Assembly: GCA_019090455.1 (NCBI GenBank) | Contig: JAHRWA010000026.1 | Span: 1,431-65,430 of the forward strand | DNA length: 64,000 bases | Direction: 5' to 3' | Origin: Pseudomonadales bacterium | GTDB taxonomy: Bacteria > Pseudomonadota > Gammaproteobacteria > Pseudomonadales > DC-out160 | In this document: in pieces, positions 4,206 to 54,799 of the stretch | How positions within the stretch are numbered: position 1 is the stretch's first letter | Layout: every line of letters begins with the position of its first letter | Translations under genes and position numbers: made by a program | Notes under the pieces: generated by a model | Told to the model about the DNA's origin: nothing | Database searches by the model: none | The model's input: the letters and a program-made list of their open reading frames with translations, nothing else

Positions 4206-4242
4206 GAAGTGATGCTGCCGAAAGGAAAATGGAACGAGCCTT

Positions 4243-4827: not shown

Positions 4828-4892
4828 TAGGGTTTTCTCGAATGAAAAGCCTGAGAGGTTTACTCTTTCTGTACCCGACTGGGTTTAGGGTT

Positions 4893-24829: not shown

Positions 24830-24845
24830 TATAGAAAAAAATACT

Positions 24846-25358
24846 ATGAGCAATGCGAATAAAGACCGAAAACTGAGTCAAAATGCTTCTAGCGAACGTG
24901 TGATTCATCCTGGTGAAATAATAATGGGTGTGATTCTAAGTGTTTCTGCGGAAGGTGTGTACGTTGATTATGACGGAAATCCTACCTCCGAAAAATTATT
25001 GGCTATTAGCACGATACCTATTGTAGAAAAACAGATTGGAAGAGAAGTGGCTTTGTTATTCAGCAATGGTGATTTGACTAAGCCAATCTTAATGGGTGTT
25101 GTCTTTAATGCGTTAGAGGAGGCTATCGTACAATCTGAGGAAGAGAGTGGGCTTCCCCTAGAACCTTTGAATAACATTGAAGTGAGTACAGGCGATGACA
25201 GAATGTTATTGGAAGCGAAAAAAGAAATCACCATTAAGTGTGGAAAATCCAGCATTACCTTGAAAGAAGATGGAAAAATTCTACTAAGAGGGACTTATTT
25301 ATCGAGTCGTTCTACTGGAGTCAATCGAATATTGGGTGGTTCGGTATTATTAAACTAA
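24846..25358 (+). CDS. DUF6484-like small protein with VgrG-tip-like C-terminus
   Basis: GVILSVSAEGVYVDYDG...EVALLFSNGDLTKPILMGVV resembles my recollection of DUF6484. The C-terminal AKKEITIKCGKSSITLKEDGKILLRG aligns with the VgrG C-terminus ADDEIVLKTGSAKITMKKNGDITIEG. Confidence 0.55.
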   Translation: MSNANKDRKLSQNASSERVIHPGEIIMGVILSVSAEGVYVDYDGNPTSEKLLAISTIPIVEKQIGREVALLFSNGDLTKPILMGVVFNALEEAIVQSEEESGLPLEPLNNIEVSTGDDRMLLEAKKEITIKCGKSSITLKEDGKILLRGTYLSSRSTGVNRILGGSVLLN

Positions 25359-25437
25359 CGATACTATGGTATTAGTGATGTTTAGGTATTTCCGATAGTC
25401 ATAATGAAATCACATTGATGATGCAACAATTGAATTT

Positions 25438-26478
25438 ATGTTACAGCTAAAAAATAATACGCCCTTCTCGCCTGCCCTATCTCTGTTTCCGAATGAGCAG
25501 GGTGTGGATACATTATATGTTGTGGTGAAATGCACTTTCGATATATTTCCTCTCGTTAAAGTCTCAGAAGTTCAGATTCCTCCCACGATAGAAGATAGTT
25601 TTTGGGGTGAGCCCATCAAAAATAGTATTAAGAATGCCTCAGAAATGCACGTAGGAAAAAGCACAACGGACATCATCTTGAATGGTCATGCTTACGCTCC
25701 TAATGAAAAAGGCGTAGATAAGCTAGACCTCTTTTTGTCAGTCGGCAATAACCAGCAAAGACTAAGTGTGATCGGTGATAGGCAATGGCATAAAGGAAAA
25801 GCTACCAAACCTATCCCGTTTGAAAAAGTAGCTTTGGTTTATGAAAATGCATACGGTGGCGAACATGTTAGCCATAAAAAGGACAGTAAGGGTGAATTAA
25901 GAGAAGTGGTGATTGGCGAAGTATGCAACCCCATAGGCAAGGGTTTTATTGGTAAGAGAGCAGGTGCGGATATTGATGGAATGCCCTTACCTAATCTTGA
26001 AGATCCTAGACAGTTAATTACGCGCCCACAACATAGTCCAGTTCCACTTTGTTTTGGCTATATAGCACCTTCGTGGCAGCCCCGCGTGCAATATGCCGGA
26101 ACTTACGATGAAAAGTGGAAAAAAAATAGGGCGCCTTACTTACCCTCTGATTTCAGCAAACGTTTTTTTAATATGGCCCATTCTTCGATGGTGAGTCGAC
26201 AGTTTTTGTTGGGTGGGGAGGCCGTTAGAATGGTGAATTCAAGCCTGCAGGGTGAAATTAATTTCAACTTACCAGCGTGTGCGATTGAGGCTAAAGTTGT
26301 ATTTGAGGACAGGGTAGAAATTCCACCGTTGGATTTGGAGACCGTACAATTAGAACCGGACCATAATCGATTTACATTGACTTGGAGAGGGAGAGTTACC
26401 TGCGATAAAGAAGCGCTAAGAATAAAGCAAGTGGACATTGATTTATTAAGTACGTCTTTACAGCAGGTAGTCGCATAG
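25438..26478 (+). CDS. DUF2169-family T6SS adaptor-like protein
   Basis: The N-terminus LKNNTPFSPALSLFPNEQGVDTLYVVVKCTFD is the typical DUF2169 start. It sits immediately downstream of vgrG, as DUF2169 genes usually do. Confidence 0.8.
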   Translation: MLQLKNNTPFSPALSLFPNEQGVDTLYVVVKCTFDIFPLVKVSEVQIPPTIEDSFWGEPIKNSIKNASEMHVGKSTTDIILNGHAYAPNEKGVDKLDLFLSVGNNQQRLSVIGDRQWHKGKATKPIPFEKVALVYENAYGGEHVSHKKDSKGELREVVIGEVCNPIGKGFIGKRAGADIDGMPLPNLEDPRQLITRPQHSPVPLCFGYIAPSWQPRVQYAGTYDEKWKKNRAPYLPSDFSKRFFNMAHSSMVSRQFLLGGEAVRMVNSSLQGEINFNLPACAIEAKVVFEDRVEIPPLDLETVQLEPDHNRFTLTWRGRVTCDKEALRIKQVDIDLLSTSLQQVVA

Positions 26479-26479
26479 C

Positions 26480-27634
26480 ATGTTAGATGAGATCAGTGAA
26501 GATTGTGAAAAATGGCAAGAGTCTCAACTCGATGATTCCGTATTGAGGGCTGCTACAGGTGCTGTGGAATTGGTTGCGACTAGTATGTTAACTCCGATTG
26601 GCATTAATACGGTTAAATCCGCTGCAGCAGTCAGAGCAGGAATTGATGCCTTTGATGACAGTAGAATTTTGGATAATTTTTTTGAAACAATAACGGCAGC
26701 GACAATCCCCGAAGGGGTGTTGCCTCCATTAGTGGATGCGTTGAAGGGTATTCCTTTTTTGTCGGGACGCCATCAGCGATTGCTACGATTGCTGACGTTG
26801 CCACTTAAAACAATAGCAGATCAAATTCAGCTTAAGGAGCCGTTGATACTTAAGTTGGCTTTGCCGGATTCAATACCCTGTGCGGTCATCAATTTTGATA
26901 ACCGATTTCTCGACTGGGTGGCGATACAAACCGAAGTACCCATTGATTTGGATTCGAGTGCACTTTTTCCTTTGGGTCGCGCCGGCGGTATTGCAGCACT
27001 GAATAGTGGCATGGTCGACCTGGAAGAAAAATCATTGCAGCAGGTGGTCGTAGGGGGAGTAGATTCTTTTGTCGATTTGGGGTTGCTAGCGAGTTTAGAT
27101 AAAGAAAAGAGAATTAACGGACCCGGAATAATGGATGGTTTTATTCCGGGAGAAGCAGCCAGTTTTTTTGCGATTCAGTCTTCAGATCTCAGTCCTAGAA
27201 ATGGAGTCGCGGAGTCGAGTGGGAGCCCGTTAGGAAAAATCATTATTCATAGTCCAGGACTGAGTACAGAGCCAGGTCATCGCTATTGCAACACTGAACC
27301 GTATAAGGGTGAAGGTCTAGCGACTGCGGTGAGTCAATCATTAGAAAGTAGCATTGCTAATACAGTACAAACGGTTCTTTGTACTTTTAATGGCGAGAGC
27401 TTTAGCAGTAAAGAGTGGGGTGTGACCTCAATTCGAAACAGGGATAGTCTAGCCGATAACGTGAGTCTGCATCATCCTGCAGAATATTTTGGAGAAATTG
27501 GAGCGGCCTTTGCTCCCGTATTAATAGGTTTGGCATCTGTAGGATTGGAGCACCGTTATTATCAGAATGATTGTTTAGTTTGGTGTAGTTCTGATACGCA
27601 ATTACGATCAGCTGTTCGCGTCACTTTATGTTGA
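26480..27634 (+). CDS. Beta-ketoacyl-synthase (thiolase-fold)-like protein, apparently lacking the nucleophilic Cys
   Basis: KAS-like blocks are ATSMLTPIGINTVKSAAAVRAGIDAF, QQVVVGGVDSFVD, FIPGEAASFFAIQS and HHPAEYFGEIGAAFAPV. The position aligned by eye to the ACxSG nucleophile reads PLGRAGG. Confidence 0.6.
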   Translation: MLDEISEDCEKWQESQLDDSVLRAATGAVELVATSMLTPIGINTVKSAAAVRAGIDAFDDSRILDNFFETITAATIPEGVLPPLVDALKGIPFLSGRHQRLLRLLTLPLKTIADQIQLKEPLILKLALPDSIPCAVINFDNRFLDWVAIQTEVPIDLDSSALFPLGRAGGIAALNSGMVDLEEKSLQQVVVGGVDSFVDLGLLASLDKEKRINGPGIMDGFIPGEAASFFAIQSSDLSPRNGVAESSGSPLGKIIIHSPGLSTEPGHRYCNTEPYKGEGLATAVSQSLESSIANTVQTVLCTFNGESFSSKEWGVTSIRNRDSLADNVSLHHPAEYFGEIGAAFAPVLIGLASVGLEHRYYQNDCLVWCSSDTQLRSAVRVTLC

Positions 27635-27673
27635 GTCTGCGGAGAGGGCACCCATTGAAATGGATAATGTTTT

Positions 27674-28864
27674 GTGAATAGTCTAGAGATAATACCTTAC
27701 AAGATGGCTGAAAATGCCGCTTTTTTTTGGATGCTGTATTCCCAAGGGGAAAATCGGCGAGACTACAATCAAAGTGATTTGGATGAGCTGAGCCAGAAGA
27801 TTAATGCTCAATTAGCGGGGCTAGAGGTATACGGTGAAGAGGCTTGGGTAGTCTGTGATGATATTCTCGACTTTGAAGATTCAGGTGAGGTATTTGTCGC
27901 AGCCTCAGTTATTCTGGGTAGCCGATTTGATGAGCGAGATAAATCAGAACGGATGCGTAAAGTGGTGACGGCTGCCTGTGCGGGTGATGAGTCATTCGAC
28001 GGGTTGGTCGGGGCTTTTAAATGGCGACCATTCGATGAATCTAAAAGCTGGATTGCTAAATTTTTGAAATCTGGGAATCCTGTTTTTTCTAGTTTAGGTG
28101 TTGATATCTGTGCTGCTCAAGATCGGGACTGCGGTGCAATGCTGACAACATTAATAGAAAAAAAAGAGGTGCAAGAAAATCCCGATTATTTCTGGCGTAT
28201 TGTCAAAGCGGTTGGTGAGCTAAGGCGTAAAGATTTGATCGAATCGTTGCTGGATTTTATCAACGCTGAGGACGACAGAGTACGGTTTTGGAGTGCGTGG
28301 TCTTGCGTCCTGCTGGGTGATTTACGCGGCCTTGAGAGTTTGAAAATATTTGCAAAAGGTGATTCTTTCTTTTCAGAAAGGGCATTAAAACTGATACTTA
28401 GAGTCATGCCCGCACAGGACGCCAAACATTTTGTAAAGGAATTGGCGGCTGGAGATAGCAGCAGGGCTGTCATTTTATCAGCTGGCATTCTAGGTGAAAT
28501 ATCGGCTATTCCCTGGTTATTGCAGCAAATGCAGGAAAAGATAACGGCACGACTTGCTGGTGAATCATTTTCGCTGATTACTGGGCTTGAAATTTTGAAT
28601 TCTGAATATGAAACGGAAGCCCCCGCTGATTTACCTATTCTTGAAGAAACATCCGATATGGATAGTAGGGATGATGATCTACCCTGGCCTAATGCCAACA
28701 GTATTGCCACTTGGTATCAACTGAATAGACTACGATTTAGTGCGGATCAACGTTATTTGCTCGGACAGATAGTCAGTATGGCCAGTTGTGAAAAAATAAA
28801 ACAGACGGGCTATCAGCCCCAAAGAAAAGCGGCAGATTTAGAAATTATAGCCGCTGCGATTTAG
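27674..28864 (+). CDS. TIGR02270-like, HEAT/ARM-repeat-like protein of unknown function
   Basis: 396 aa and helical-repeat-like (RFWSAWSCVLLGDLRGLESLKIF, AVILSAGILGEISAIPWLLQQM). It lies between DUF2169 and DUF4150 genes. The family call is from memory. Confidence 0.45.
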   Translation: MNSLEIIPYKMAENAAFFWMLYSQGENRRDYNQSDLDELSQKINAQLAGLEVYGEEAWVVCDDILDFEDSGEVFVAASVILGSRFDERDKSERMRKVVTAACAGDESFDGLVGAFKWRPFDESKSWIAKFLKSGNPVFSSLGVDICAAQDRDCGAMLTTLIEKKEVQENPDYFWRIVKAVGELRRKDLIESLLDFINAEDDRVRFWSAWSCVLLGDLRGLESLKIFAKGDSFFSERALKLILRVMPAQDAKHFVKELAAGDSSRAVILSAGILGEISAIPWLLQQMQEKITARLAGESFSLITGLEILNSEYETEAPADLPILEETSDMDSRDDDLPWPNANSIATWYQLNRLRFSADQRYLLGQIVSMASCEKIKQTGYQPQRKAADLEIIAAAI

Positions 28865-41491: not shown

Positions 41492-41761
41492 CTAAACAGG
41501 TTCGGGTTGTGGTGCTTGGCGTTGAATGGCTTCTGGTTTCGCTGGAGCTTGTGGCTGCTGAGGTCGGCTATTGCTATTACCTAAGGTAATGTGCTTCGGT
41601 CCAGCTAGGCTTTGTTGTCCACTGACGCCAGAGTTTATGTATTCAATTTCACCGCCACTTTCTAGGAAAGCTTGAGTTTGATCTCTGATTGATAAGGATG
41701 TTTCAGTGGAGGGACTCTTTTTAGGTGTACTTGGTCTTGTATTGCTGGGTTTAGAAGCCAT
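41492..41761 (-). CDS. Small Ser/Pro/Gln-rich protein of unknown function
   Basis: Track ORF is 41492..41824. An ATG at 41761 gives MASKPSNTRP. A conserved-looking core AFLESGGEIEYINSGVSG is flanked by low-complexity tails. No confident family assignment. Confidence 0.45.
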   Translation of the reverse strand: MASKPSNTRPSTPKKSPSTETSLSIRDQTQAFLESGGEIEYINSGVSGQQSLAGPKHITLGNSNSRPQQPQAPAKPEAIQRQAPQPEPV

Positions 41762-41964
41762 GTAGAGGAGCCTTAAATTTGCTATGCGGTTGAGCATTGT
41801 ACACAAGCGGGTATGTAGGTACAAGTTGTCTATATGTTGTGCTGTTTTTTGCAGGCTTTATGCTTGCAATTCACGCAAAAAATAGTCTCATTTATGCGGG
41901 TTTTCTTGGGGGAATTTAATTTGTACTTTTCGCCATATGTGCCCGAAATAGCAAGGAATATTCG

Positions 41965-43705: not shown

Positions 43706-45697
43706 TCAAAGGGAAAGCCAATGATCTAGCTTTACTGTTAATTCATCCAGATCAATGGGCTTGGGTATATAGTCATCCATTCCTGATTCGATGCACCGCT
43801 CTCGATCAAGTGTCGTTGAATTAGCGGTCACCGCTATTATGGGGACTTTTCTAATGCTAGATTTAGCATTTCTAATGATTTTTGTTGCTTCAAACCCATC
43901 CATGACTGGCATTTGGCAATCCATGAGAATGATATCGACTTCTGTTTTTTCTATTTCCACAATTGCCTCTTCGCCATTACCTGCAACTACCACATTCAAT
44001 CCGTATTTTTCAGCAAACTTTCTTTCTACGATAAGATTGACTGGGTTGTCTTCCACTATCAATATGGTTTTTGATGAAATGTCGATTGGCTGGTGTGATG
44101 TTACAATCGACGTGTTTGTCTGTTTGTCGATTTGAAGAGGGATTTCCAGCTTTGCTATTGTGCCGTGATCTTCTTGCGAAGATATGTGGATCGAACCTTT
44201 CATCATTTGTAGCAATGACTGGCAGAAAGTCAGTCCTATTCCTAGACCACTAAAGCGCCGCGTTGAATTATCTTCAAGCTGCCTAAAAAGTTGGAATATT
44301 TTTTCTAGCTGATCATTATCAATGCCAATCCCAGTATCTTCAACTGTGATTTTTAATATCATGAAATTATCAGTTTTAGTTGCTCTGTCTAATTTTGACT
44401 TCAGTTTGATGTGCCCATGATGCGTAAACTTAACGGCATTATCGATTAGATGTTCAATGACACGTGTGAGTTGAGCGGGATCACCAATGAAATTGTCTGT
44501 TAGATCGGACTCTATTTTAACTTCAAAAGACAAAGCTCGGTTATCTGATTTCTGTCTTGCTTTTGTTACAATATTGTTTAGAACTTTGGTTAGAGAGAAT
44601 GGCTTATTATCAAGTTTTAAAGTGCCGGCGATGGCTTCGGTGAGGATCAATATACTCTCAACAAGATCACATAGATCTGACAATGAGTTACTTGCCGTTG
44701 AAAGTAGTTCAGCTTGTTCGGGTGGTAGCTGTTGGTCATGCTGCATAAGGTATAAAGCGCCTTGGGCACCATTCAACGGCGTTCTCAGTTCATGATTTAT
44801 TATGGTAAGAAAAGCGTCTTTTATCTCATTACTCTGTGACAGTTTTTTTAGGGATGACCGTAGCTCTTTGGTGCGTTGTTTAACGACCTCTTCCAAAGAG
44901 TCTTGATATAATTTCAATTGTAAGTGTATCTTCACTCGTGCCAGCAGTAGAGGTACGTTGATTGGCTTCATAATATAGTCAACACCGCCAACGCTAAAGC
45001 CTTCTTCTTCTGCGCAACTCATATTTTCTGATGTCACGAATATAACAGGGATTAATTCCGTCTCTGCCATGCTTTTTAATTGACGGCAGGTATCGAAGCC
45101 ATTAATCCCTGGCATGAGTACATCTAGTATAATGAGCTGCGGGCGTACCTCCTGTGCTAATGCAATGCCTTGGTTTCCCGTACTCGCGCTTCTCACTTGG
45201 TATCCTGCATCAGAGAGAGAGGTTTCTAATAATAAAACCATATCGGGCGAGTCATCAATAATGAGGATATCGACGGCCTCTTCGCAAGCGAGATCTTTGC
45301 TATGTTGTAATTCCAGTTCTTGCCTACGGGAATGTACGGCAGCCTCTACCTTTATCATGAGTAGAGCATTATCGGTGGGTACAGCCAAGCAGTCGAAGGC
45401 TCCCAGTAATAAACCTTTGACAGCATTTGAGGTTTCAGAGAAATCGGTGTTGAGGAATATGATTGGTATATTTCTTATGAGTGCAATTTGTTTGACGGAA
45501 TTCATAAAGGCATAACCGTCAAATTGTGGATTAACAATATTTAAGACGATGGTTTCAGGTAATAACTGCTGTGCTAGCTGAAGGCCACTGTTGCCGCTGT
45601 CGGCACAATATATTGTATAGTGAGCCGAAAGAATCGCAGAAAATTGCTGTTGGTTTTCCTTGTTGTCATCAATAATGAGTATTGACATTACGCTCAA
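43706..45697 (-). CDS. Hybrid sensor histidine kinase with two N-terminal receiver domains (the first degenerate) and one C-terminal receiver
   Basis: REC1 is ILIIDDNK...IVLNIVNPQFDG, with Asn where the phospho-Asp is expected. REC2 is ILIIDDSP...IILDVLMPGINGFD. H-box is NHELRTPLNG and G-boxes are DTGIGI and GLGIGL. REC3 is ILIVEDNP...ILMDCQMPVMDGFE. There is no TM segment. Confidence 0.85.
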   Translation of the reverse strand: MSVMSILIIDDNKENQQQFSAILSAHYTIYCADSGNSGLQLAQQLLPETIVLNIVNPQFDGYAFMNSVKQIALIRNIPIIFLNTDFSETSNAVKGLLLGAFDCLAVPTDNALLMIKVEAAVHSRRQELELQHSKDLACEEAVDILIIDDSPDMVLLLETSLSDAGYQVRSASTGNQGIALAQEVRPQLIILDVLMPGINGFDTCRQLKSMAETELIPVIFVTSENMSCAEEEGFSVGGVDYIMKPINVPLLLARVKIHLQLKLYQDSLEEVVKQRTKELRSSLKKLSQSNEIKDAFLTIINHELRTPLNGAQGALYLMQHDQQLPPEQAELLSTASNSLSDLCDLVESILILTEAIAGTLKLDNKPFSLTKVLNNIVTKARQKSDNRALSFEVKIESDLTDNFIGDPAQLTRVIEHLIDNAVKFTHHGHIKLKSKLDRATKTDNFMILKITVEDTGIGIDNDQLEKIFQLFRQLEDNSTRRFSGLGIGLTFCQSLLQMMKGSIHISSQEDHGTIAKLEIPLQIDKQTNTSIVTSHQPIDISSKTILIVEDNPVNLIVERKFAEKYGLNVVVAGNGEEAIVEIEKTEVDIILMDCQMPVMDGFEATKIIRNAKSSIRKVPIIAVTANSTTLDRERCIESGMDDYIPKPIDLDELTVKLDHWLSL

Positions 45698-45871: not shown

Positions 45872-47281
45872 GTGTTAAATTATCGTAAGTTCCATTTATT
45901 ACAGAGTATTTTCTCTTGGTGTAGTCCTATCGTTATTTTTCTGCGGTCCACTGTTCTTGTGTTTGTTTGTACGCTTATGATATTTGGGACTCTTTTGACG
46001 TTGAGCGCCTCGGCGCTTGTGGTTGCAGAAGAAGACGCAAGCAGCCTGTTCAGTGAATTAAAAAAGCAGGTGTATCAGATACGGGTCATTGACCTAGCTT
46101 CCGATGATAAAAGTGCGATTGGATCGGGGTTTTTGATTAGTGACACGGGATTGATAGCAACTAATTTCCATGTTGTTTCTTCCTATGTTCATGAGCCCTC
46201 AAAATATCGATTGGAGTATGTCGATTACTTGGGGGGAACGGGCTCTATCGAATTGCAGAGCATTGATGTCGTTCATGATCTCGCCATTGGTAAAATATCA
46301 ATTGGTAAAATAGCGATAGGAAAAATCGAGATTGATAAAGCTGTAACGGACATTTCGAATACACAAGGTTCAAATTTCTTTTCGTTCAATTTGGGCGAAA
46401 TGTCACAAGGCGAGCGTCTCTATTCCGTGGGGAACCCCCTTGATCTAGGCATGACAATTATTGAAGGCATCTACAACGGACTGATAAAAAAATCACGTTA
46501 TAAGAAAATACTTTTTTCAGGTTCTTTGAATTCAGGTATGAGCGGCGGCCCCGCCTTGGACTCAAAAGGGCAAGTGATAGGAATCAATGTCGCTAAAGGG
46601 AGTGAACAATTAAGCTTCTTGGTTCCCGTAGAATACCTTCATGTGCTCCTAATAAAATTGGCTGAGAAGGGGCCTGAAAAAGATTTTGAGCAGTCGATTA
46701 CAGAAGCACTAACGAATGATCAACGTCGTTTTTACGCTGAACTATTAGGAAGGGATTGGCAGAAAGAGAAGTTTATGGAAGCGATACTACCGACAAAAAT
46801 CAGTGATAAGCTGGAGTGCTGGGGCCATACGGAAGACAAAGAGGAGTATCTCTATAAGGGTGTTCATCAGCATTGTCGCTCATCAGATGATATTTATTTA
46901 AGTGGTACTTTATCCACTGGCCATTTCTCCTATAGCTATGAATGGAATGAGTCCACGCAATTGAACAGCGCTCAGTTTTACAATGTACTGGAGAGGCGGT
47001 TTGATCACCGTGGATTGAATAATATATACGAAGAAAAGGATGGGACCAATTTCTCGTGCCATACCGAATTCGTGACGTTGAGTCAGCATGAATGGAAAAT
47101 TTCTAGTTGCTTGCGTGGATATAAAATGTATCGTGGATTGTACGATGCTAGTTTTGTGATGGCTTCAGTGGATACCAGGGATAAGGGGCTGATTATTAGG
47201 GGTGCTGCCGCGGGTTTGAGTAAAGAGAATGTTCAGGGAATGATAAGGAAATTCTTAGAGGCCGTTGAATGGACACGCTAG
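45872..47281 (+). CDS. Trypsin-like (S1/S1C-type) serine protease with N-terminal TM/signal segment and a Cys-containing C-terminal domain of unknown function
   Basis: Catalytic contexts are ATNFHVV (His), VHDLAIGKI (Asp) and NSGMSGGPALDSKGQVIGINV (Ser). A hydrophobic N-terminal segment is present. The start is GTG, so the exact start is uncertain. Confidence 0.8.
   Translation: MLNYRKFHLLQSIFSWCSPIVIFLRSTVLVFVCTLMIFGTLLTLSASALVVAEEDASSLFSELKKQVYQIRVIDLASDDKSAIGSGFLISDTGLIATNFHVVSSYVHEPSKYRLEYVDYLGGTGSIELQSIDVVHDLAIGKISIGKIAIGKIEIDKAVTDISNTQGSNFFSFNLGEMSQGERLYSVGNPLDLGMTIIEGIYNGLIKKSRYKKILFSGSLNSGMSGGPALDSKGQVIGINVAKGSEQLSFLVPVEYLHVLLIKLAEKGPEKDFEQSITEALTNDQRRFYAELLGRDWQKEKFMEAILPTKISDKLECWGHTEDKEEYLYKGVHQHCRSSDDIYLSGTLSTGHFSYSYEWNESTQLNSAQFYNVLERRFDHRGLNNIYEEKDGTNFSCHTEFVTLSQHEWKISSCLRGYKMYRGLYDASFVMASVDTRDKGLIIRGAAAGLSKENVQGMIRKFLEAVEWTR
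46283..46342 (+). repeat. In-frame 15-bp tandem repeat (4 units) inside the protease gene, encoding (x-I-G/D-K-I/A)4
   Basis: Units are gccattggtaaaata, tcaattggtaaaata, gcgataggaaaaatc and gagattgataaagct. The protein reads AIGKISIGKIAIGKIEIDKA, directly after the catalytic Asp context. Confidence 0.8.
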
Positions 47282-48240
47282 TCATTCGTTTGGGCTTACG
47301 TCACGCGAGAATAAGTGAATTCGTAAAGGTAAAAAGCGACACTTTTAGTGTGGGGCGCGCGTTGAAAAACGATCTGGTCCTGTCTGATCCCTACATTGCA
47401 CCCGAGCAATTGCGCTTTAGTCGTGATGAGTCAGGTTGGTCTATGGAGATCATGGATTTTATTAATCCTATTGTTGTGAATGATGAGCCTGTTGAGAAGA
47501 AGGATGCGATCGTAAAAGTACATTCTGGTGATTGCCTCGTACTGGGTCGAACCCATATGGCACTTTTTTCCGAGGATCATCCTAGTGATGCGACGCGGAC
47601 TATGGTGCTGTCACGTTGGTTGCACCATTCGGTTTTGCGACGAGTGATTCCATTGTTAATGTTGGCAGTGGCCTGTGCCATTACGGGCTTGAGTGAATAT
47701 TCTCACTTGGCCACGGAAATGAAATTGGGTGATGTCGCAATGAGCAGTTTGATTGTTGCATTGGCAGCACTAGGTTGGTCGAGCCAATGGGCTCTTGCGG
47801 GTCGAATATTACATCATCATGCCCATTTTTTTGCGCAATTATTTTACACCTCCTCGATATTAGCCGCCATTTGTTTGTTGGGGTTGGTGGAGGGCTATGT
47901 GGAGTACATGCTTAATAGCAATGTGATCGAATCCACTTTTATTCAAATTTTTCTGTTTGGTCTTATTACTGCATTGCTTAAATTTAATCTCTCTTATGCA
48001 ACACACATACATCGTAAGTGGACAGTTTCATTTGCGGTGACGACATTTGGGGCCGTGGTCATCTTTAGTCTATTTCATTTCAATGCGAGAGACTTTAAGG
48101 CGACACCGGAATACTCCGCTGTACTTCGGCCTCCGGTGGTGAAGTTGTTAGGCAATCAAAGTCTGGATGAATTTATGATGGATTTCGAAGCCCAGTTTGA
48201 ACTTGTTGATTCCGAAATAGACGACTGGAAAAGCAAATAG
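47269..48240 (+). CDS. FHA-domain protein with C-terminal polytopic membrane domain
   Basis: The N-terminal FHA-like segment is FSVGRALKNDLVLSDPYIAPEQLRF...VNDEPV...GDCLVLGRTHMALF, followed by about 5 hydrophobic helices. The ATG overlaps the protease stop codon by 13 nt. Confidence 0.75.
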   Translation: MDTLVIRLGLRHARISEFVKVKSDTFSVGRALKNDLVLSDPYIAPEQLRFSRDESGWSMEIMDFINPIVVNDEPVEKKDAIVKVHSGDCLVLGRTHMALFSEDHPSDATRTMVLSRWLHHSVLRRVIPLLMLAVACAITGLSEYSHLATEMKLGDVAMSSLIVALAALGWSSQWALAGRILHHHAHFFAQLFYTSSILAAICLLGLVEGYVEYMLNSNVIESTFIQIFLFGLITALLKFNLSYATHIHRKWTVSFAVTTFGAVVIFSLFHFNARDFKATPEYSAVLRPPVVKLLGNQSLDEFMMDFEAQFELVDSEIDDWKSK

Positions 48241-48306
48241 TTTCTCGGCCTAATCTCTAGTATCCTAATCGCTCTTACCCACTTTCGTTAAGAGTCGATT
48301 TTATTG

Positions 48307-51300
48307 ATGAGCCGAGAATCCATTGTCATTAGAGGCGCCCGCCAAAATAATCTTAAAAATCTAGATTTAGATCTGCCTACCAATGAGCTTATTGTCGTCA
48401 CCGGTGTGAGTGGATCTGGTAAGTCGACTTTAGCTTTTGACACCATTTATGCAGAAGGGCAACGTCGTTACGTGGAAACGTTTTCCGCTTATGCTCGACA
48501 GTTTTTAGATAGGATGGATAAACCCAATGTCGATAGTATACAAGGGATTCCACCGGCTATAGCGATCAACCAATCTAATCCAGTACGCACTTCCCGTTCC
48601 ACTGTTGGGACGATGACCGAGCTAAATGATTATATAAAGCTTTTGTTTGCGCGACTCTCCCGATTGTTCTGTCATCAGTGTGATCGTGAGGTATCAAGAG
48701 ATTCAGCTCAGAGTATTGTCAATTCAATCTATGAATTAGCGGAAACTGATCAGCGGTGCATTATTTGTTTGCCGATTAAAGTACCGGATAATTTCACTGA
48801 CGACGAAGTTGTCCAAATGCTCAATCAGCAAGGCTATACGCGAATTCATAAGCGAACCAAAAAAAAATTAGAAGTGATACAAGACCGATTGGTGCTGAGA
48901 GAAAGCAATCGCGAAAGATTGACCGAGTCCATTGAAGCAGCACTGCAACATGGGAATGGACATGTGTTGATATACCCGCTGGATGCGGAAAAAAATAGCG
49001 GAGAACCCTGGCGCTATTCCAGTCATCATCATTGCTCACACTGCGAAATTGATTATGCCGATCCGACACCCAGTTTATTTTCTTTTAATTCTGCTATCGG
49101 AGCCTGCGAAGAATGTCGCGGTTTTGGACGTATTATTGGCGTGGATTATGGTTTGGTTATACCGGATGAATCCAAATCCTTAAGGGAAGGCGCGATTAAG
49201 CCTTTTCAAACTCCTAGCAACGTGGAGATTCAAGATGCTCTTATCTCTTTTGCTCAAAAGAAAAAAGTACCGCTAGATACACCGTGGAGGAAACTCACTA
49301 AAAAACAGCAAGCCTGGATCATAGAGGGAGAGGGCCGTTGGTCTGATGGAGTGTGGTTTGGCATAGACGGTTTTTTTCGTTGGTTGGAAGCGAGAGCTTA
49401 CAAAATGCATGTTCGCGTCCTGCTTTCCAAATACCGTTCCTATACCACTTGCCCTGAGTGTCACGGAGCGAGATTGAAGCCCAGCGCTTTATGGTGGCGG
49501 ATTGATGATCTCAATGTGCATGACATTATGCAGTTACCACTAGAGCAAGGCGCAAAATTCTTTAAGCAAGTAAATCTGCCTGCCCAGTTTGATGAGGCCG
49601 GTGAACTGCTGTTGACCGAGGTGCGGTCACGTTTGGATTATTTGTTGGAAGTGGGTTTAGGCTATTTAACCTTAGACCGACAATCTCGAACTTTGAGTGG
49701 TGGTGAAGTACAACGGATTAATTTGACGACTGCTCTCGGGACTTCTTTAGTCAATACTTTGTTTGTTCTGGATGAGCCTAGTATTGGTTTGCACCCAAGA
49801 GATATTAACCGTCTCGTACTGGTATTACATCGCCTACGGGATGCAGGCAATACGTTGTTAGTAGTTGAGCACGATCCGCAAGTCATTATGGCAGCAGATC
49901 GTGTGTTAGATATTGGACCGGGTCCGGGAAAGCTAGGGGGAGAGATTGGTTTTTTTGGTACGCCGAAGGCACTCATGCGTAATCGAAAATCGCTTACCGC
50001 TCAATATCTCTCGGGTAAAAAGTCCGTGACTTTCGAGGTCCATAAACCGGGTTTTTCCCCGACCAACAACACACTAAAGATCGTCGGCGCGAGTGAGCAT
50101 AATCTAAAAAATATCGATATTGATATCCCATTAAATCGCTTGGTGTGTATTACCGGTGTTAGTGGTTCGGGTAAGTCGACACTCATGCGAGATGTGCTTT
50201 ATCCCGCACTCTGCAAAATAAAAGGAAAAACCATAGAAACCCCCGGTGCTCACCATAGCATTAAAGGGCATGATCATATTGATGATGTGGTGTTAGTGGA
50301 TCAAAGTGCGATTGGTAAAACCACACGATCGATTCCGGCTACCTATGTAGGGGCATTCGATGCCATCAGGAAATTATTTTTGGTGACACCTCTGGCAAAG
50401 GAGCGAGGTTACACTGCAGGTACATTTAGCTTTAATTCGGGTAATGGCCGTTGTCCTACTTGTACGGGTAATGGTTTCGAGCACGTGGAGATGCAGTTCC
50501 TGAGTGATGTGTACTTACGTTGTGCGGATTGCAATGGAAAACGATATCGAAATGAAATATTGGAAGTGACCTTGCTAGGCGCAAAAGCGACTGAGGAAAA
50601 TAAGTCAGATTCTAATAAAATCGTTGTCTCTGAAGCAATGTCTATTGCGGATGTGTTGGAGCTTACCGTCACTGAAGCCCTGTCTTTTTTCGCGGATGCT
50701 CCCGATGTGATAAGCAGTTTACAGCCGTTAGCTGACGTTGGTCTTCAATATGTACAGCTAGGGCAGTCGGTGCCGACACTGAGTGGTGGTGAGGCGCAAC
50801 GTCTTAAGTTAGCAGGTTATCTGGCAAAGAATGCGATGGCGCAGAAAAAAGCACTGGCTAAGAAAAAGGCGCAAGATAAAAAGAAATATCTAGTTAAGCC
50901 AAAAACATCCACGAAGAAAAGCACGGCTAAGAATAAAACAGCACAGGTTAAGGACAATGTTCCAGCGGAAAAAGGAACTTTATTTCTATTTGACGAGCCT
51001 ACGACGGGTTTGCACTTCGATGATATTGCTACCTTGATGAAAGCGTTTCAACAGCTGATTCAAGCCGGGCATTCTCTCTTGGTGATAGAGCATAATATAG
51101 ATGTGATTCGAGCCGCAGACTGGATCATTGATATTGGTCCAGAAGGGGGTGACGGTGGCGGGCAACGTATCGCCGAGGGGAGTCCTCAGGCGGTGGCGAA
51201 AACGAAGACTCATACTGGGATTGCTTTGCAAGACTACTTTAGTTCTTTAGATCAAAAGCAGGGGGGAGCGCAAAAGGTGGCTGAACTGGCGGCCACTTAC

Positions 51301-54030
51301 GCCACGGGCAATTCAAATTATGAACAGAAAAAACCAATGCCAAGAAAGCGTGAGATTCAGATTCATCATGCGAGAGAGCACAATCTAAAAAACATTGACA
51401 TAAATATTCCTCTCGATAAATTTACCGTGATCACAGGGGTGAGTGGCAGTGGGAAAAGCACAGTCGCTTTTGATATCGTTTTTGGGGAAGGGCAACGTCG
51501 CTATCTTGAATCCTTAAATGCCTACGCAAGACAGTTTATTCAAGCCGCTTCTCGCCCTGACGTAGATGCGATACACGGTATACCCCCTACCGTCGCCATT
51601 GAGCAACGTACCAGTCGAGGCGGTCGAAAAAGTACAGTGGCCACGCTTACCGAAATTTATCACTTTATGCGGTTGCTCTATGTGAAATTAGGCACTCAAC
51701 ATTGCCCCCATTGTGATGAAGCTATTGAGCCGCAAACATCCGCGGCGATACTTGCTCGATTATTAAAAGACTTTCGTGGCCAGAAGATAGAGCTGCTTGC
51801 ACCTCAGGTGGTCGCGCGAAAGGGCATATATAAGGAGCTAGCCAAGTGGGCTAGCGACAAAGGGTTTGAACGATTGCGAGTGGATGGAGAATATCAGCAA
51901 ACGGATCCTTGGCCAGTCTTGGATCGATATAAGGAGCATGATATTGAACTTCTCGTTGGCAGCTGTGAGGTGACGGCTAAGAATGAAGTCCACTTAATGG
52001 GGCTGCTGGAACAGGCATTAAAACTGGGCAATGAAATTGTTATTGTTTCACCTATTGGATCTGAGAAAACAAGAAATAAAATTAAAGCTAAGAATAAAAA
52101 AGAGACCCTATTTTCCACTTCTCGTTCATGTCCTGGATGTGGTCAAGGCTTCGATGAGCTGGATCCGCGCTTGTTCTCCTATAACTCCAAACACGGTTGG
52201 TGCGCACATTGTTTTGGAACGGGTGTGCTCATCAAGGATTTTGATGAAGAACAAACTGGGGAGGAGGAAGAATGGCGACTTGAAGACGATAACGGTTCTT
52301 CTAATGTCAGCTCTTCTAAAACAAGCTCTTCAAAAAAGGGGGTGACGATAGCGGATAGGGATAAGCACTGTCATCATTGTGATGGCCAACGATTGAATGA
52401 CACTGCACTAGCGGTGCGCTTCCGTTCGCAGTCAATTGCCCAGCTCGCCAATTACACAGTGGATCATAGTAACCTTTGGTTTTCGAAGCTGAAGTTAACC
52501 AAAAAGGAAGCCGAGATCGCAAAGGATCTTATGGTTGAATTAACAGGACGGCTGCAGTTTTTGAATAAAGTCGGTCTGGGATACTTAACCTTAGATCGGG
52601 CCGCTCCTACGTTGAGTGGTGGCGAGGCACAACGGATACGCCTAGCGTCTCAGTTAGGGTCGAATCTACAAGGGGTTTGTTATATTTTGGATGAACCCAC
52701 TATTGGCCTTCATGCCAGAGATAATCGCCGACTCATCACGACGTTACGCGAATTGCAACAGCAGGGTAATACCGTTCTAGTAGTAGAGCACGATGAAGAT
52801 ACGATCCAGGAGGCGGACTATATTATCGATATGGGACCGGGTGCTGGGATAAATGGGGGAGAAGTGGTTGCTCAAGGGACTTTGCCGCAGCTGATAAAAA
52901 ACAAAAAATCGATCACAGGGCAGTTTGTATCGAACCCGCTTCGCCACCCGATGAAGGATCTTGTGGATCAGGCGTTACGCCAGAGATGGGATAGCGAAAA
53001 AATGTCAATCCTAGGGGCGTCGCAAAACAATCTGGCCAATGTGGATGTGGATATTCCTTTGCGCCGCTTGGTGTGTGTATCCGGAGTCAGTGGTAGTGGC
53101 AAAAGCACACTGATTCGCTCAGTGCTACAACGAAATCTTCGTCCTATCATTAACGTGCCTGGAAAAGGCGCAAAGAGAAAGACAGTGCGTTGGCAAGGTT
53201 GTGAGGATATTGTCGGTTGGGGTAGCATTCGACGAATACTCGAAGTGGATCAAACGCCCATAGGCAAAACGCCGCGTTCTTGTCCGGCGACTTATATCGG
53301 CATTTGGGATCAAATACGCAAATTGTTTGCGGGAACAGTGGATGCCCGACTACGGGGTTATAAACCCGCACGGTTTTCTTTTAATACCGGTGATGGTCGG
53401 TGCGGTACCTGTGGTGGTCATGGCATGCGTAAGGTAGAAATGAATTTTTTGCCAGACGTAAGGGTTGAGTGTGAAGTCTGCCATGGCTGGCGGTTCAATG
53501 ATGAGACGTTAACCGTGCGTTACAAAGATAAGCACATCGGAGATGTGCTTATGATGAATGTGGAGGAGGCGTCTACCTATTTTTCAGAAGTCGCTTCTAT
53601 TCATCATGCGTTGCAATTATTGCAAGATGTGGGTTTGGGTTACTTAACCTTGGGGCAACAAAGTCCCACCTTAAGTGGGGGCGAGGCGCAACGAATAAAA
53701 TTAGTTGCTGAGTTGGCAAAGGCAAAGATGAATATAAAATCCATAGGCCAGCACAATCTCTATATTCTTGATGAGCCCACTGTGGGATTGCATATGGCAG
53801 ATGTGGAAAAGCTAGTACGAGTGCTGCATCGATTGGTTAACGCGGGCAACTCTGTCATCGTAATCGAACATAATCTAGATGTGATAGCGGAAGCGGACTG
53901 GATAATTGATATGGGACCGGAAGGTGGCAGCAAAGGGGGTAAAGTTATTGCTCAAGGGGCACCCGAAACGATGTGTAAGAGAAAACGATCGTATACGGGA
54001 GAGTATTTAAAGCAGTTGTTAGAGAGATAG
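48307..54030 (+). CDS. Tandem-duplicated UvrA-like ABC ATPase (two complete UvrA-like units fused, 4 nucleotide-binding modules)
   Basis: Single uninterrupted frame of 1907 aa from the ATG at 48307. The UvrA N-terminal signature RGARQNNLKNLDL...GVSGSGKSTLAFDTIYAEGQRRYVETFSAYARQF recurs at about residue 1015 (HHAREHNLKNIDI...GVSGSGKSTVAFDIVFGEGQRRYLESLNAYARQF). There are four GVSGSGKST Walker A sites, four LSGGE signature motifs and multiple CxxC zinc modules. Confidence 0.9.
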   Translation: MSRESIVIRGARQNNLKNLDLDLPTNELIVVTGVSGSGKSTLAFDTIYAEGQRRYVETFSAYARQFLDRMDKPNVDSIQGIPPAIAINQSNPVRTSRSTVGTMTELNDYIKLLFARLSRLFCHQCDREVSRDSAQSIVNSIYELAETDQRCIICLPIKVPDNFTDDEVVQMLNQQGYTRIHKRTKKKLEVIQDRLVLRESNRERLTESIEAALQHGNGHVLIYPLDAEKNSGEPWRYSSHHHCSHCEIDYADPTPSLFSFNSAIGACEECRGFGRIIGVDYGLVIPDESKSLREGAIKPFQTPSNVEIQDALISFAQKKKVPLDTPWRKLTKKQQAWIIEGEGRWSDGVWFGIDGFFRWLEARAYKMHVRVLLSKYRSYTTCPECHGARLKPSALWWRIDDLNVHDIMQLPLEQGAKFFKQVNLPAQFDEAGELLLTEVRSRLDYLLEVGLGYLTLDRQSRTLSGGEVQRINLTTALGTSLVNTLFVLDEPSIGLHPRDINRLVLVLHRLRDAGNTLLVVEHDPQVIMAADRVLDIGPGPGKLGGEIGFFGTPKALMRNRKSLTAQYLSGKKSVTFEVHKPGFSPTNNTLKIVGASEHNLKNIDIDIPLNRLVCITGVSGSGKSTLMRDVLYPALCKIKGKTIETPGAHHSIKGHDHIDDVVLVDQSAIGKTTRSIPATYVGAFDAIRKLFLVTPLAKERGYTAGTFSFNSGNGRCPTCTGNGFEHVEMQFLSDVYLRCADCNGKRYRNEILEVTLLGAKATEENKSDSNKIVVSEAMSIADVLELTVTEALSFFADAPDVISSLQPLADVGLQYVQLGQSVPTLSGGEAQRLKLAGYLAKNAMAQKKALAKKKAQDKKKYLVKPKTSTKKSTAKNKTAQVKDNVPAEKGTLFLFDEPTTGLHFDDIATLMKAFQQLIQAGHSLLVIEHNIDVIRAADWIIDIGPEGGDGGGQRIAEGSPQAVAKTKTHTGIALQDYFSSLDQKQGGAQKVAELAATYATGNSNYEQKKPMPRKREIQIHHAREHNLKNIDINIPLDKFTVITGVSGSGKSTVAFDIVFGEGQRRYLESLNAYARQFIQAASRPDVDAIHGIPPTVAIEQRTSRGGRKSTVATLTEIYHFMRLLYVKLGTQHCPHCDEAIEPQTSAAILARLLKDFRGQKIELLAPQVVARKGIYKELAKWASDKGFERLRVDGEYQQTDPWPVLDRYKEHDIELLVGSCEVTAKNEVHLMGLLEQALKLGNEIVIVSPIGSEKTRNKIKAKNKKETLFSTSRSCPGCGQGFDELDPRLFSYNSKHGWCAHCFGTGVLIKDFDEEQTGEEEEWRLEDDNGSSNVSSSKTSSSKKGVTIADRDKHCHHCDGQRLNDTALAVRFRSQSIAQLANYTVDHSNLWFSKLKLTKKEAEIAKDLMVELTGRLQFLNKVGLGYLTLDRAAPTLSGGEAQRIRLASQLGSNLQGVCYILDEPTIGLHARDNRRLITTLRELQQQGNTVLVVEHDEDTIQEADYIIDMGPGAGINGGEVVAQGTLPQLIKNKKSITGQFVSNPLRHPMKDLVDQALRQRWDSEKMSILGASQNNLANVDVDIPLRRLVCVSGVSGSGKSTLIRSVLQRNLRPIINVPGKGAKRKTVRWQGCEDIVGWGSIRRILEVDQTPIGKTPRSCPATYIGIWDQIRKLFAGTVDARLRGYKPARFSFNTGDGRCGTCGGHGMRKVEMNFLPDVRVECEVCHGWRFNDETLTVRYKDKHIGDVLMMNVEEASTYFSEVASIHHALQLLQDVGLGYLTLGQQSPTLSGGEAQRIKLVAELAKAKMNIKSIGQHNLYILDEPTVGLHMADVEKLVRVLHRLVNAGNSVIVIEHNLDVIAEADWIIDMGPEGGSKGGKVIAQGAPETMCKRKRSYTGEYLKQLLER

Positions 54031-54059: not shown

Positions 54060-54092
54060 CGCTCCCGTTATTGTTGTGAAATAACGGGAGCG
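54060..54092. terminator. Hairpin terminator between convergent genes (best on the minus strand)
   Basis: CGCTCCCGTTAT (54060-54071) pairs with ATAACGGGAGCG (54081-54092). On the minus strand it is followed by TTTTCTTTTTC. Confidence 0.7.
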
Positions 54093-54130: not shown

Positions 54131-54799
54131 TTAGGCTCTACTGCTCTTTTGCTTTTTTCTTGCAAGACCAAGTGCAATTAATCCTAATCCAAATAGTGAT
54201 AGTGTTTCGGGCTCAGGAACTGAAGCGATATTCACATTTGAATTGAGGAATTCAACACGAAGACCAGCAGGGTTGCCAGTAGCTTGAGCAGAGTTGATTA
54301 AAGTAAACTCGAGTGTATTCAAGCCTGCGATAAAGCTACCACCCAAATCTGAAAATGTAGCCCAGCTGGTGAATGAAGCCGACGAGTTGCTTAACGCATC
54401 ACCGTTTAGGGATAGAGTGCCGCTATTATCCGTTGCCCAACGTCCGTCAAATGATGCACTAGTTGCATCGTATCCAGTCAAATCAAAGGTGAGAGACCAC
54501 GTATAAGTACCGTTGGATACAGGGTCATACGATGTGTTAGCAGATGGGCCAGGTGTAAGCCACTGAGAAGTTGCATTATTAGGGATCCATGGGCCTTGGG
54601 TTGGCCAACCTGTGCCCTCGTAACCATTTGCACCAAAAGCAGTGGTGTCAGCACCTGAATAGCTCAGTGCGTAGTTTGAATCGATAGTACCGGCAGTAGA
54701 ACTTTCGCCAGTATTGTATAGGTCAGAAATGGGTATAGCTGACGCGTTAATTGAAATTAACGACGTCAATGTTGCTGCAGCAAGAAGTTTAAAATTCAT
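54131..54799 (-). CDS. PEP-CTERM sorting-domain secreted protein
   Basis: Signal peptide, a Ser/Thr/Gly/Asn-rich body, and C-terminal VPEPETLSLFGLGLIALGLARKKQ (PEP motif, TM helix and basic tail). Confidence 0.85.
   Translation of the reverse strand: MNFKLLAAATLTSLISINASAIPISDLYNTGESSTAGTIDSNYALSYSGADTTAFGANGYEGTGWPTQGPWIPNNATSQWLTPGPSANTSYDPVSNGTYTWSLTFDLTGYDATSASFDGRWATDNSGTLSLNGDALSNSSASFTSWATFSDLGGSFIAGLNTLEFTLINSAQATGNPAGLRVEFLNSNVNIASVPEPETLSLFGLGLIALGLARKKQKSSRA

Follow-up and report, generated by a model that had tools for sequence, protein, structure and literature searches.

The subject of this analysis is a group of three genes that lie in a row on the plus strand at positions 45,872 to 54,030 of a 64,000-nucleotide stretch of DNA from a Pseudomonadales bacterium (GenBank assembly GCA_019090455.1, contig JAHRWA010000026.1, positions 1,431 to 65,430 of the forward strand); the whole of that stretch is called the window. 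The genes encode a trypsin-like protease, a membrane protein carrying a domain of the FHA type, and a double-length protein resembling UvrA. An earlier interpretation, made by a model from the letters alone and called here the sequence-only reading, held that the three may form one functional unit that links an envelope or signaling input to a DNA-binding ATPase. We find that the trio is not one system. The protease and FHA-membrane genes are a self-contained pair, the fused uvrA is an independent gene, and the two stand side by side only in this lineage. The genes and the sequences that join them are as follows.

45872–47281, plus strand: gene for a secreted S1 (trypsin-fold) serine protease, 469 amino acids (aa) from GTG
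47269–48240, plus strand: FHA-membrane gene, encoding an inner-membrane protein of 323 aa
47269–47281, plus strand: overlap of these two genes by 13 nucleotides (nt), read from the sequence, the likely translational coupling site
48241–48306, plus strand: 66-nt spacer between the pair and the uvrA-like gene, with an imperfect hairpin and then AUUUUAUU
48304 or 48307–54030, plus strand: fused uvrA-like gene, 1908 or 1907 aa

All three open reading frames (ORFs) are co-directional on the plus strand, as the sequence-only reading had described them, and the 13-nt overlap and 66-nt gap that it reported are both present in the sequence. The ATG of the FHA-membrane gene occupies 47269–47271 and is preceded at about 10 nt by AGAGG, the TAG that ends the protease gene occupies 47279–47281, and the uvrA-like ATG at 48307 lies 66 nt past the stop of the FHA-membrane gene.

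We followed the conservation of this arrangement from the protease side. The protein collection holds at least 955 relatives of the protease, and a collection with one genome per species gave 434 matching stretches; the 80 best of these 434, from a pattern-based scan, were joined with 10 contigs obtained through exact protein look-ups to give the 90 loci studied, of which 83 form the non-redundant set. After ORFs had been called in all 90 loci, a profile of the FHA-membrane protein and the sequence of UvrA served as queries against them. The FHA-membrane gene is immediately 3′ of the protease gene in 88 of the 90 loci, and in all 83 non-redundant loci the two genes are adjacent and co-directional. 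The overlap measures exactly 13 nt in 76 of the 83 and 4, 10, 16 or 25 nt in the rest, a recurrence far beyond chance, and within it the codon of an invariant tryptophan near the C-terminus of the protease (W467) and the first methionine of its partner share the bases ATGG. An overlap frozen in this way across phyla argues for translational coupling and for products required in fixed proportion, and the coupling that the sequence-only reading had proposed for these two genes is strongly borne out. The same picture was obtained from the other gene, for which a word-based search with the FHA protein found only 12 relatives; on their contigs the protease gene is always directly upstream and overlapping.

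The carriers of the pair are mostly marine and sediment Gammaproteobacteria. They include lineages represented by metagenome-assembled genomes (Halioglobus, Haliea, Sedimenticolaceae and Cellvibrionaceae) and the isolates Litoribacillus, Dasania and Parathalassolituus, and further carriers are metagenome-assembled genomes labeled Omnitrophota, Planctomycetales, Fibrobacteres and Chitinispirillaceae. Cultivable carriers are available in Litoribacillus peritrichatus, Dasania phycosphaerae, Parathalassolituus penaei, Spartinivicinus and Endozoicomonas. The pair is a clean, widespread and uncharacterized two-gene module of fixed architecture, present in more than 400 places of the one-genome-per-species collection, across several phyla.

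No third gene family is conserved with the pair in the 83 loci, as judged by all-against-all clustering of the ORFs within 8 kb. The commonest neighbor family, a short-chain dehydrogenase, occurs at 14 of the 83 loci, and the others are metabolic or efflux genes (oxidoreductases, parts of RND efflux systems, acyl-CoA dehydrogenases), so we rejected the idea of a third conserved partner. Among these loci the two closest relatives, L001 (which is the same contig as L011) and L002, are the only ones with a UvrA-like ORF no more than 10 kb from the pair. At L001 (66% identity) one BrkB-family gene stands between the pair and the fused uvrA, and at L002 (54% identity) four genes do, one of them on the opposite strand. 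The contig of L010 (46% identity) stops about 0.5 kb past the FHA-membrane gene, and at L005, L007 and L009 (24–39% identity) the genes downstream of the pair are unrelated. The sequence-only reading had proposed examining the neighborhoods of double-UvrA homologues for protease and FHA genes, and this check did not bring out the co-occurrence it looked for: in Maricurvus nonylphenolicus and Marinimicrobium sp. C6131 the fused uvrA is alone among unrelated genes, with neither of the two as a neighbor. The trio as a conserved unit therefore fails from the pair side, in 83 loci, and from the UvrA side, in two genera, on a ground that the sequence-only reading had itself named as refuting it, namely that homologues of the three genes do not lie together in other genomes; a three-gene "protease-FHA-UvrA system" would be a tempting but wrong entry for catalogues of defence or stress systems. 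Given the synteny in L001 and L002, the uvrA most likely came to lie beside the pair in this lineage through loss of the intervening gene or genes.

A rival explanation would keep the three genes together as one operon and one system in this lineage alone, with an envelope signal received through the pair controlling or recruiting the fused UvrA, for example in repair or in sensing foreign DNA. It draws on the common direction of the genes, on the 66-nt gap with no called promoter or terminator between the FHA-membrane gene and uvrA, and on the short distance, a few kb, that separates the genes in the two closest relatives. FHA domains elsewhere also take part in DNA-damage signaling. Such an operon is hard to reconcile with the one or four intervening genes of the relatives, one of them on the opposite strand, with the lack of a UvrA-like ORF within 10 kb at any of about 78 other pair loci, and with the fused-UvrA loci of other genera, which are without the pair; the genera among the best protease matches and those among the best fused-UvrA matches, moreover, do not overlap. 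We consider a lineage-specific operon very unlikely and conclude that the pair and the fused uvrA are separate units.

The spacer itself contains the hairpin that the sequence-only reading noted, but its stem is longer than the 6–7 bp given there, with an inner stem of about 11 bp with bulges and then AUUUUAUU. The terminator scan did not call this hairpin, and the promoter scan found no sigma-70-like promoter in the 66 nt. An additional 8-bp outer stem can be drawn over 48242–48318, where UUCUCGGC, just past the stop of the FHA-membrane gene, pairs with GCCGAGAA in codons 2–4 of the uvrA-like gene. The spacer RNA folds at −23.2 kcal/mol (z = −2.4), and the fold with the outer stem could be a weak terminator or a structure that masks translation. 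Downstream of the uvrA-like gene two features lie on the minus strand.

54060–54092, minus strand: intrinsic terminator hairpin with a 13-bp stem and its T-tract on the minus strand (terminator scan and sequence)
54131–54799, minus strand: convergent PEP-CTERM gene

The sequence-only reading had taken the first of these as a strong terminator of the uvrA-like gene. The hairpin is real, but on the plus strand it has an A-tract before the stem and no T-run directly after it. Because the T-tract is on the minus strand, the hairpin serves the convergent PEP-CTERM gene and could stop the uvrA-like gene only weakly, if at all. In the explanation that we favor, the uvrA-like gene is monocistronic. 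There is no match to a LexA box (CTGT-N8-ACAG) near or upstream of it, and SOS control of the gene was rejected on that ground.

The anatomy of the pair was examined in alignments of 86 protease and 84 FHA-membrane sequences. The protease has the following parts.

46169–46171 (H100), 46277–46279 (D136) and 46541–46543 (S224), plus strand: catalytic residues, kept in 85–86 of 86 sequences
46292–46326, plus strand: 15-nt tandem repeat in 2.3 copies (Tandem Repeats Finder), part of a 20-aa insertion, IGKISIGKIAIGKIEIDK
46670–47278, plus strand: unclassified C-terminal domain (aa 267–469) with four near-invariant cysteines, in the place of the PDZ domain of HtrA

The Pfam score (Trypsin_2, 2e-20; 74 bits against a cut-off of 27.6), the conserved triad and the fold all place the protease among the S1 (chymotrypsin/trypsin-fold) peptidases. 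The AlphaFold model has a predicted local distance difference test score (pLDDT) of 91 and a predicted template modeling score of 0.88, and its best Foldseek matches are Mycobacterium tuberculosis HtrA, plant Deg1 and Deg5, human HtrA1 and HtrA2, and Escherichia coli DegS, with a probability of 1.0 against HtrA and DegS. Membership in the strict HtrA/DegP/DegQ/DegS (S1C) family was rejected, since Pfam finds no PDZ domain in the protease and the scores against the curated families are far under their cut-offs (58.5 bits against 416 for TIGR02037 and 34.8 against 423 for DegS).

The extra cysteine-containing domain and the N-terminal hydrophobic segment that the sequence-only reading had seen are both confirmed, the domain being about 200 aa long with four invariant cysteines. 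These residues (C316, C335, C396 and C413) are kept in 83–86 of 86 sequences and the neighboring histidines are not conserved, so that two disulfides are more likely than a metal site, in agreement with a location outside the cytoplasm. Neither Pfam nor a profile search of PDB sequences matched the domain (for Pfam above noise; both at E ≤ 10). Among 1.84 billion cluster representatives, a profile of the domain matched 634 at E ≤ 1e-3, of which 439 reached E ≤ 1e-10. The best 150 matches are, with few exceptions, 415–445 aa long and carry the domain at the very end, and from these lengths and this position we conclude that the domain is confined to one architecture; longer matches (448–566 aa) are merely extended at the N-terminus and carry no additional Pfam domain, so that other architectures were rejected. 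The N-termini of the homologues are hydrophobic segments that end in Ala-rich sites, resembling Sec signal peptides, and from sequence and model the protease is predicted to be active and exported to the periplasm. The public annotation of the window protease begins at TTG 46001 and gives 426 aa. Because the signal segment of the homologues would be removed, that start is probably too far downstream, and GTG 45872 or the alternative ATG at 45977 is more plausible. The 20-aa insertion (IGKISIGKIAIGKIEIDK...) follows directly on the catalytic Asp in the window protease and is absent from the 19 homologues aligned with it; the region is modeled at low confidence, with pLDDT below 50 at model residues 112–116.

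The second protein of the pair is divided into three parts.

47269–47571, plus strand: cytoplasmic FHA-like domain (aa 1–101), from Pfam and from the beta-sandwich of the model
47629–48093, plus strand: five transmembrane (TM) helices (aa 121–275), from the model and hydropathy; a conserved linker lies between the FHA-like domain and these helices
48094–48237, plus strand: periplasmic tail of 48 aa (aa 276–323), with a conserved F-x3-P-x-Y-x5-P-P motif and a terminal helix

The first part has the FHA fold by profile and by structure. It scores 32.2 bits against Pfam FHA (cut-off 20.7) and 45 bits, also above cut-off, against Yop-YscD_cpl, and Foldseek gives TM-scores (here, of structural similarity) of 0.8–0.87, target-normalized, to the FHA domains of GarA, Rv0020c and Ki67. 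Only this part of the protein, about 100 columns, is aligned by Foldseek (GarA, Rv0020c, YscD). The prediction of about five TM helices was correct, with five hydrophobic helices after the FHA domain. Lysines and arginines occupy the predicted cytoplasmic loops, and acidic residues occupy the remaining loops and the tail; by the positive-inside rule this charge pattern puts the FHA-like domain in the cytoplasm and the tail in the periplasm, on the same side as the protease. The AlphaFold model (pLDDT 77) has a low-confidence stretch at residues 275–297 and a terminal helix at 299–322. Conservation over the 84 sequences is best in the linker (0.51), followed by the FHA domain (0.48), the tail motif (0.43), TM5 (0.28) and the terminal helix (0.22). 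TM2 and the loop after it are also among the best conserved segments (W170, W174, G178, R179, H183, F187), and the tail motif, F276-x3-P280-x-Y282-x5-P288-P289, is proximal to the membrane. The TM region matches no solved structure by Foldseek, and a family assignment for it was rejected, since Pfam at E ≤ 10 returned no family but inconsistent noise.

The FHA pocket is canonical in part: all 84 sequences have G29 and R30, and 79 (94%) have N66. Where GarA has its phosphate-binding Ser, the window protein has Ala44 (Ala in 41 sequences, Ser in 17, Asp and Gly in 12 each), and Gln47 takes the place of the His (Gln in 58 sequences, His in 22). The sequence-only reading had assumed that the domain reads phosphothreonine, and this could hold for some members of the family; for the window protein it is doubtful, because the canonical Ser and His are replaced by Ala44 and Gln47. 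Identity with the inner-ring proteins of type III secretion systems, YscD, EscD and PrgH, was rejected: with its five TM helices and 48-aa tail the protein does not show their single TM helix followed by periplasmic ring-building domains, and no type III secretion genes are present in the window or at related loci.

The pair thus joins a serine protease of the periplasm to a membrane protein that bears an adaptor domain in the cytoplasm; the C-terminal domain of the protease and the five-helix module of its partner are both unclassified. No known family name or function fits it, and the public names of its proteins are generic. Our best guess, from the analysis as a whole, is trans-envelope signaling or regulated proteolysis of the DegS-RseA type. 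The two proteins would meet in the periplasm, where the protease would bind or cleave the conserved disordered tail or the loop at 208–218, or would be tethered or gated by the membrane protein. The helix bundle, the FHA-like domain and the conserved linker would then change state and alter binding in the cytoplasm, so that the logic would be that of regulated proteolysis or signaling across the membrane, as in DegS-RseA and other signaling proteases. The contact between protease and tail and the signaling output are inferred, as is the repair role of the fused UvrA discussed below; what the analysis shows directly is the gene content, the conservation of the pair but not of the trio, the domain anatomy and the membrane topology. 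In its specific form, in which a periplasmic protease with a new sensor domain stabilized by disulfides acts on the tail and switches FHA-like binding, with the overlap enforcing one-to-one production, this would be an undescribed trans-envelope signaling device, and we propose it tentatively.

The main rival to this mechanism is periplasmic protein quality control without signaling: envelope proteins would be degraded or processed by the protease, for which the membrane protein would serve only as anchor, chaperone or inhibitor, and the FHA-like part would be structural or oligomerizing, as in the type III secretion protein YscD. The best matches of the protease in fold and sequence are indeed HtrA, DegP and DegS, the Yop-YscD_cpl profile outscores FHA, the Ser and His that canonically contact phosphothreonine are replaced in most members, and no conserved kinase, phosphatase or regulator is found near the pair. 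However, the PDZ domains of the HtrA quality-control proteases are absent here, and the pocket has not simply decayed, with G29 and R30 invariant, N66 at 94% and the canonical Ser and His kept in 17–22 of the 84 sequences. The cytoplasmic linker is also the best conserved part of the membrane protein (0.51), which would be odd for a mere anchor. We regard quality control as possible and about equally likely as the specific signaling device.

The pair was compared with several known systems. With DegS-RseA it shares the genetic pairing of a periplasmic trypsin-fold protease with an inner-membrane protein whose periplasmic segment is combined with a protein-binding domain in the cytoplasm, and the protease domain finds its best structural matches in DegS and HtrA. 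Unlike DegS, the protease of the pair has the four-Cys domain in place of PDZ; its partner, with five TM helices and an FHA-like domain, also differs from the single-pass anti-sigma factor RseA. Genes for a sigma factor or a site-2 protease are not linked to the pair, and cleavage of the partner is putative. The anti-sigma factor RsgI9 of Clostridium thermocellum (S1C peptidase-like and NTF2-like domains, PDB 7sjy) also combines a trypsin fold with a second compact domain outside the cytoplasmic membrane, and this ectodomain is its sensor in transmembrane signaling. Foldseek aligned the protease with 7sjy over 348 columns (E = 9e-15) at a root-mean-square deviation of 17.5 Å, with only the protease domain clearly superposed. 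The bi-domain of RsgI9 is fused to a membrane protein, whereas the pair has a separate secreted protein, in which the catalytic triad is invariant. An FHA fold on the cytoplasmic side of a membrane protein is shared with YscD/EscD, of which YscD is among the fold matches, and with mycobacterial FhaB/FipA (Rv0019c), of which FhaB is a weak NCBIfam match of the membrane protein (26 bits against a cut-off of 125). Unlike YscD, the protein of the pair has five TM helices and a 48-aa tail and lacks the arrangement of a single TM helix with periplasmic ring-building domains, and no secretion-system or cell-division genes surround it. FHA and trypsin-fold domains are functionally linked in one polypeptide in an FHA-FHA-trypsin fusion of Bacteroides thetaiotaomicron, NP_811686.1 (PMC2605481), which we liken to the pair by its description and not by sequence. 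The searched literature, which most subscription journals lie outside of, contains no description of the pair, and within it the statement of the sequence-only reading that no system of this composition has been described stands for the pair. The pair adds a protease family with an unclassified C-terminal domain and a family of FHA-like membrane proteins, both of which may turn out to serve communication across the inner membrane by a new route.

A role in defence or in sensing foreign DNA, which the sequence-only reading had considered, found no support. PADLOC matched the protease to RT-Protease_XI (1e-13) and the fused UvrA to mad3 (1.8e-156) and mad8 (1.9e-74) and gave no match for the FHA protein; these matches reflect generic trypsin and ABC-ATPase similarity, the neighbors are metabolic, and defence-system membership was rejected. 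Membership in MADS, a multi-gene mad cluster, was rejected as well, since mad3 and mad8 cover generic UvrA regions and no mad genes flank the locus (neighbors annotated with Pfam). One can nevertheless imagine the pair or the trio as an anti-phage or conflict system, with the protease as effector and the ATPase as sensor, and cite for it the three PADLOC matches and a caspase-domain gene downstream of the pair at L009. The matches are restricted to the trypsin and UvrA/ABC domains, however, and no other mad or defence genes flank the trio. Defence genes typically vary more than these do: the architecture of the pair is fixed and the fused UvrA is 63–79% identical across genera. An island at the Marinimicrobium locus is on the opposite strand and absent from the other loci. 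We judge an anti-phage system to be the least probable of all the explanations considered, and highly improbable in itself. The caspase-domain protein (Peptidase_C14; 755 aa, 2747–5014 at L009) is encoded on the same strand directly 3′ of the FHA-membrane gene, a single case, not conserved elsewhere, at the most distant locus examined. The mad3 and mad8 models apparently rest on UvrA-like ATPase parts; they would probably match any UvrA and may produce false positives when defence systems are annotated.

The third gene of the row encodes two UvrA halves in tandem.

48307–51231 (half 1, aa 1–975) and 51232–54027 (half 2, aa 976–1907), plus strand: tandem-fused UvrA halves, from NCBIfam, PDB matches and motifs
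49129–49449, plus strand: insertion (DNA-binding) domain of half 1 (aa 275–381), from Pfam and the E. coli alignment, the sole copy in the protein
50830–50976, plus strand: Lys-rich low-complexity insert of about 48 aa (KKALAKKKAQDKKKYLVKPKTSTKKSTAKNK) in the second ATPase module of half 1, between signature motif and Walker B
52231–52368, plus strand: acidic, Ser-rich linker of half 2 (aa ~1309–1354), low-complexity, about 48 aa, at the position of the insertion domain

The NCBIfam UvrA model NF001503 matches the protein in four stretches with 2114 bits against a cut-off of 1147, and Pfam finds UvrA_inter twice and UvrA_DNA-bind once (aa 281–345). Walker A motifs are present at aa 33, 617, 1044 and 1593 together with four signature motifs and four H-loops, and all four ATPase sites are intact as judged by these motifs. 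Both halves align along whole UvrA structures, half 1 with residues 22–950 of 2r6f (B. stearothermophilus UvrA). The halves are 32–42% identical to each other and 39–41% identical to E. coli UvrA, and identities this low point to an old fusion and a divergent lineage. UvrB-binding domains are present twice, E. coli residues 118–256 matching aa 122–246 and aa 1133–1278 by BLAST; the copy in half 1 has a 15-aa deletion and that in half 2 is full-length.

The insertion domain is present only once. The spacer between the Cys motifs that flank it has, over 120 homologues, a median of 107 aa in half 1 (102–111) and of 29 aa in half 2 (15–48), against 121 aa in E. coli. We compared the protein with its best 120 homologues listed, which are 63–79% identical over 98–100% of the length and all 1835–2055 aa long. 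The asymmetry of one insertion domain is kept in 120 of 120, and UvrB-binding regions are found in both halves in 119. The Lys-rich insert is absent from the UvrAs of E. coli and B. stearothermophilus. Homologues occur in cultured Exilibacterium, Pseudomaricurvus, Maricurvus, Marinimicrobium, Gilvimarinus, Saccharospirillum, Motiliproteus and Pseudohongiella, and some sources name them "Excinuclease ABC subunit A, dimeric form."

A double-length UvrA is thus not new as such, and the window protein belongs to an already annotated form. Tandem UvrAs are also catalogued in NF001885/PRK00635 (1809 positions), a curated family of "excinuclease ABC subunit A" proteins of about 1800 aa, of which the window protein is not a member (1162 bits against a cut-off of 3054); it represents a separate lineage of Gammaproteobacteria that are mostly marine. 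The scheme of UvrA classes by Goosen and Moolenaar or Marszalkowska reportedly may include fused forms. We found no paper on the fused UvrA or on its one-insertion-domain asymmetry, and no scheme of UvrA classes that covers it, in the searched literature, which, with most subscription journals outside it, is weak evidence of novelty. Like class I UvrAs (E. coli, B. stearothermophilus), each half has two ABC modules with the full ABC ATPase motifs, the cysteines of the zinc module and a UvrB-binding domain. Class I proteins, however, are homodimers of chains of about 940 aa with an insertion domain in each protomer, whereas here two diverged copies share one chain of 1907 aa, with the insertion domain in half 1 only, the Lys-rich insert and the 15-aa deletion in a UvrB-binding domain.

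These features suggest that the fused UvrA would scan DNA for distortions as a covalent, asymmetric pseudo-dimer and hand them to UvrB. A damage-scanning pseudo-dimer that engages UvrB is the most likely role for the protein, although a function outside nucleotide excision repair has to be weighed. Class II UvrAs are about 40% identical to class I, coexist with canonical UvrA, and have neither the UvrB-binding domain nor the first zinc finger (PMC9328131). The class II proteins DrrC, Ecm16 and Deinococcus UvrA2 are divergent UvrA paralogues, as the fused UvrA appears to be: its identity to class I is close to the distance of class II from class I, and it is probably a divergent paralogue in a genome that has an ordinary uvrA elsewhere. 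One might therefore suppose that it acts as DrrC and Ecm16 do and clears DNA-binding toxins or intercalators without UvrB. The 39–41% identity of the halves to E. coli UvrA, comparable to the gap between the classes (PMC9328131), the loss of one insertion domain and the lack of an upstream LexA box would all agree with such a role. Yet the UvrB-binding domain that class II lacks (PMC9328131) is present in both halves in 119 of 120 homologues, UvrA_inter is matched twice, and the NCBIfam cut-off for the UvrA equivalog is passed. Membership in class II was rejected on account of the UvrB-binding domains, and we consider a toxin-clearing role unlikely, with UvrB-dependent damage scanning as the preferred role. 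As a natural covalent asymmetric "dimer" in which a single insertion domain is combined with two UvrB-binding domains that differ from each other, the fused UvrA offers a ready tool with which to ask what share each protomer has in damage recognition and UvrB loading, a question that is hard to approach with a symmetric homodimer.

Taken with the mechanism proposed for the pair and the role proposed for the fused UvrA, we put the probability of two independent units at roughly 0.6. Several observations weigh against this interpretation. The three genes are within a few kb of one another in three related genomes, which amounts to local linkage, and in this genome the spacer has neither a promoter-like site nor a called terminator; read-through from the pair into uvrA may occur here as a local accident. 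The window protein has a degenerate FHA pocket (Ala44, Gln47), and no Ser/Thr kinase was found in the window ORFs scanned. Whole-chain Foldseek against PDB returned no recognized fold match for the C-terminal domain of the protease, and SOS control is unsupported, no LexA box being found upstream of the fused uvrA.

The neighborhood of the trio in the window is mainly metabolic. The flanking genes, annotated with Pfam only, encode a PEP-CTERM protein, hydrolases, an MFS transporter, a GST, an SDR and a histidine kinase. The last of these lies directly upstream of the protease gene.

43706–45697, minus strand: hybrid histidine kinase gene with three receiver domains, divergent from the protease gene

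No Pkinase, PP2C, uvrB or uvrC was found in the scan of 41 window ORFs, among them all those of at least 200 aa. The sequence-only reading had stated that no uvrB, uvrC, kinase or phosphatase gene is nearby; this is right for uvrB, uvrC, PP2C and Ser/Thr kinases but not for kinases generally, as the hybrid histidine kinase adjoins the trio. The latter occupies the same position in the closest relatives, L001, L002 and L003, and is not found there at more distant pair loci.

Further from the trio, the window contains an orphan type VI secretion vgrG island at 22718–28864, made up of VgrG (22718–24829), a DUF2169 protein (25438–26478), a 384-aa ORF without assignment and a HEAT-repeat protein, with no other type VI core genes among the window ORFs scanned. 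A separate ORF at 4243–4827 resembles immunity proteins of the Imm11 family, and a small ORF of 110 aa on the minus strand (41492–41824) carries a SutA RNA-polymerase-binding domain (Pfam, 2.5e-11).

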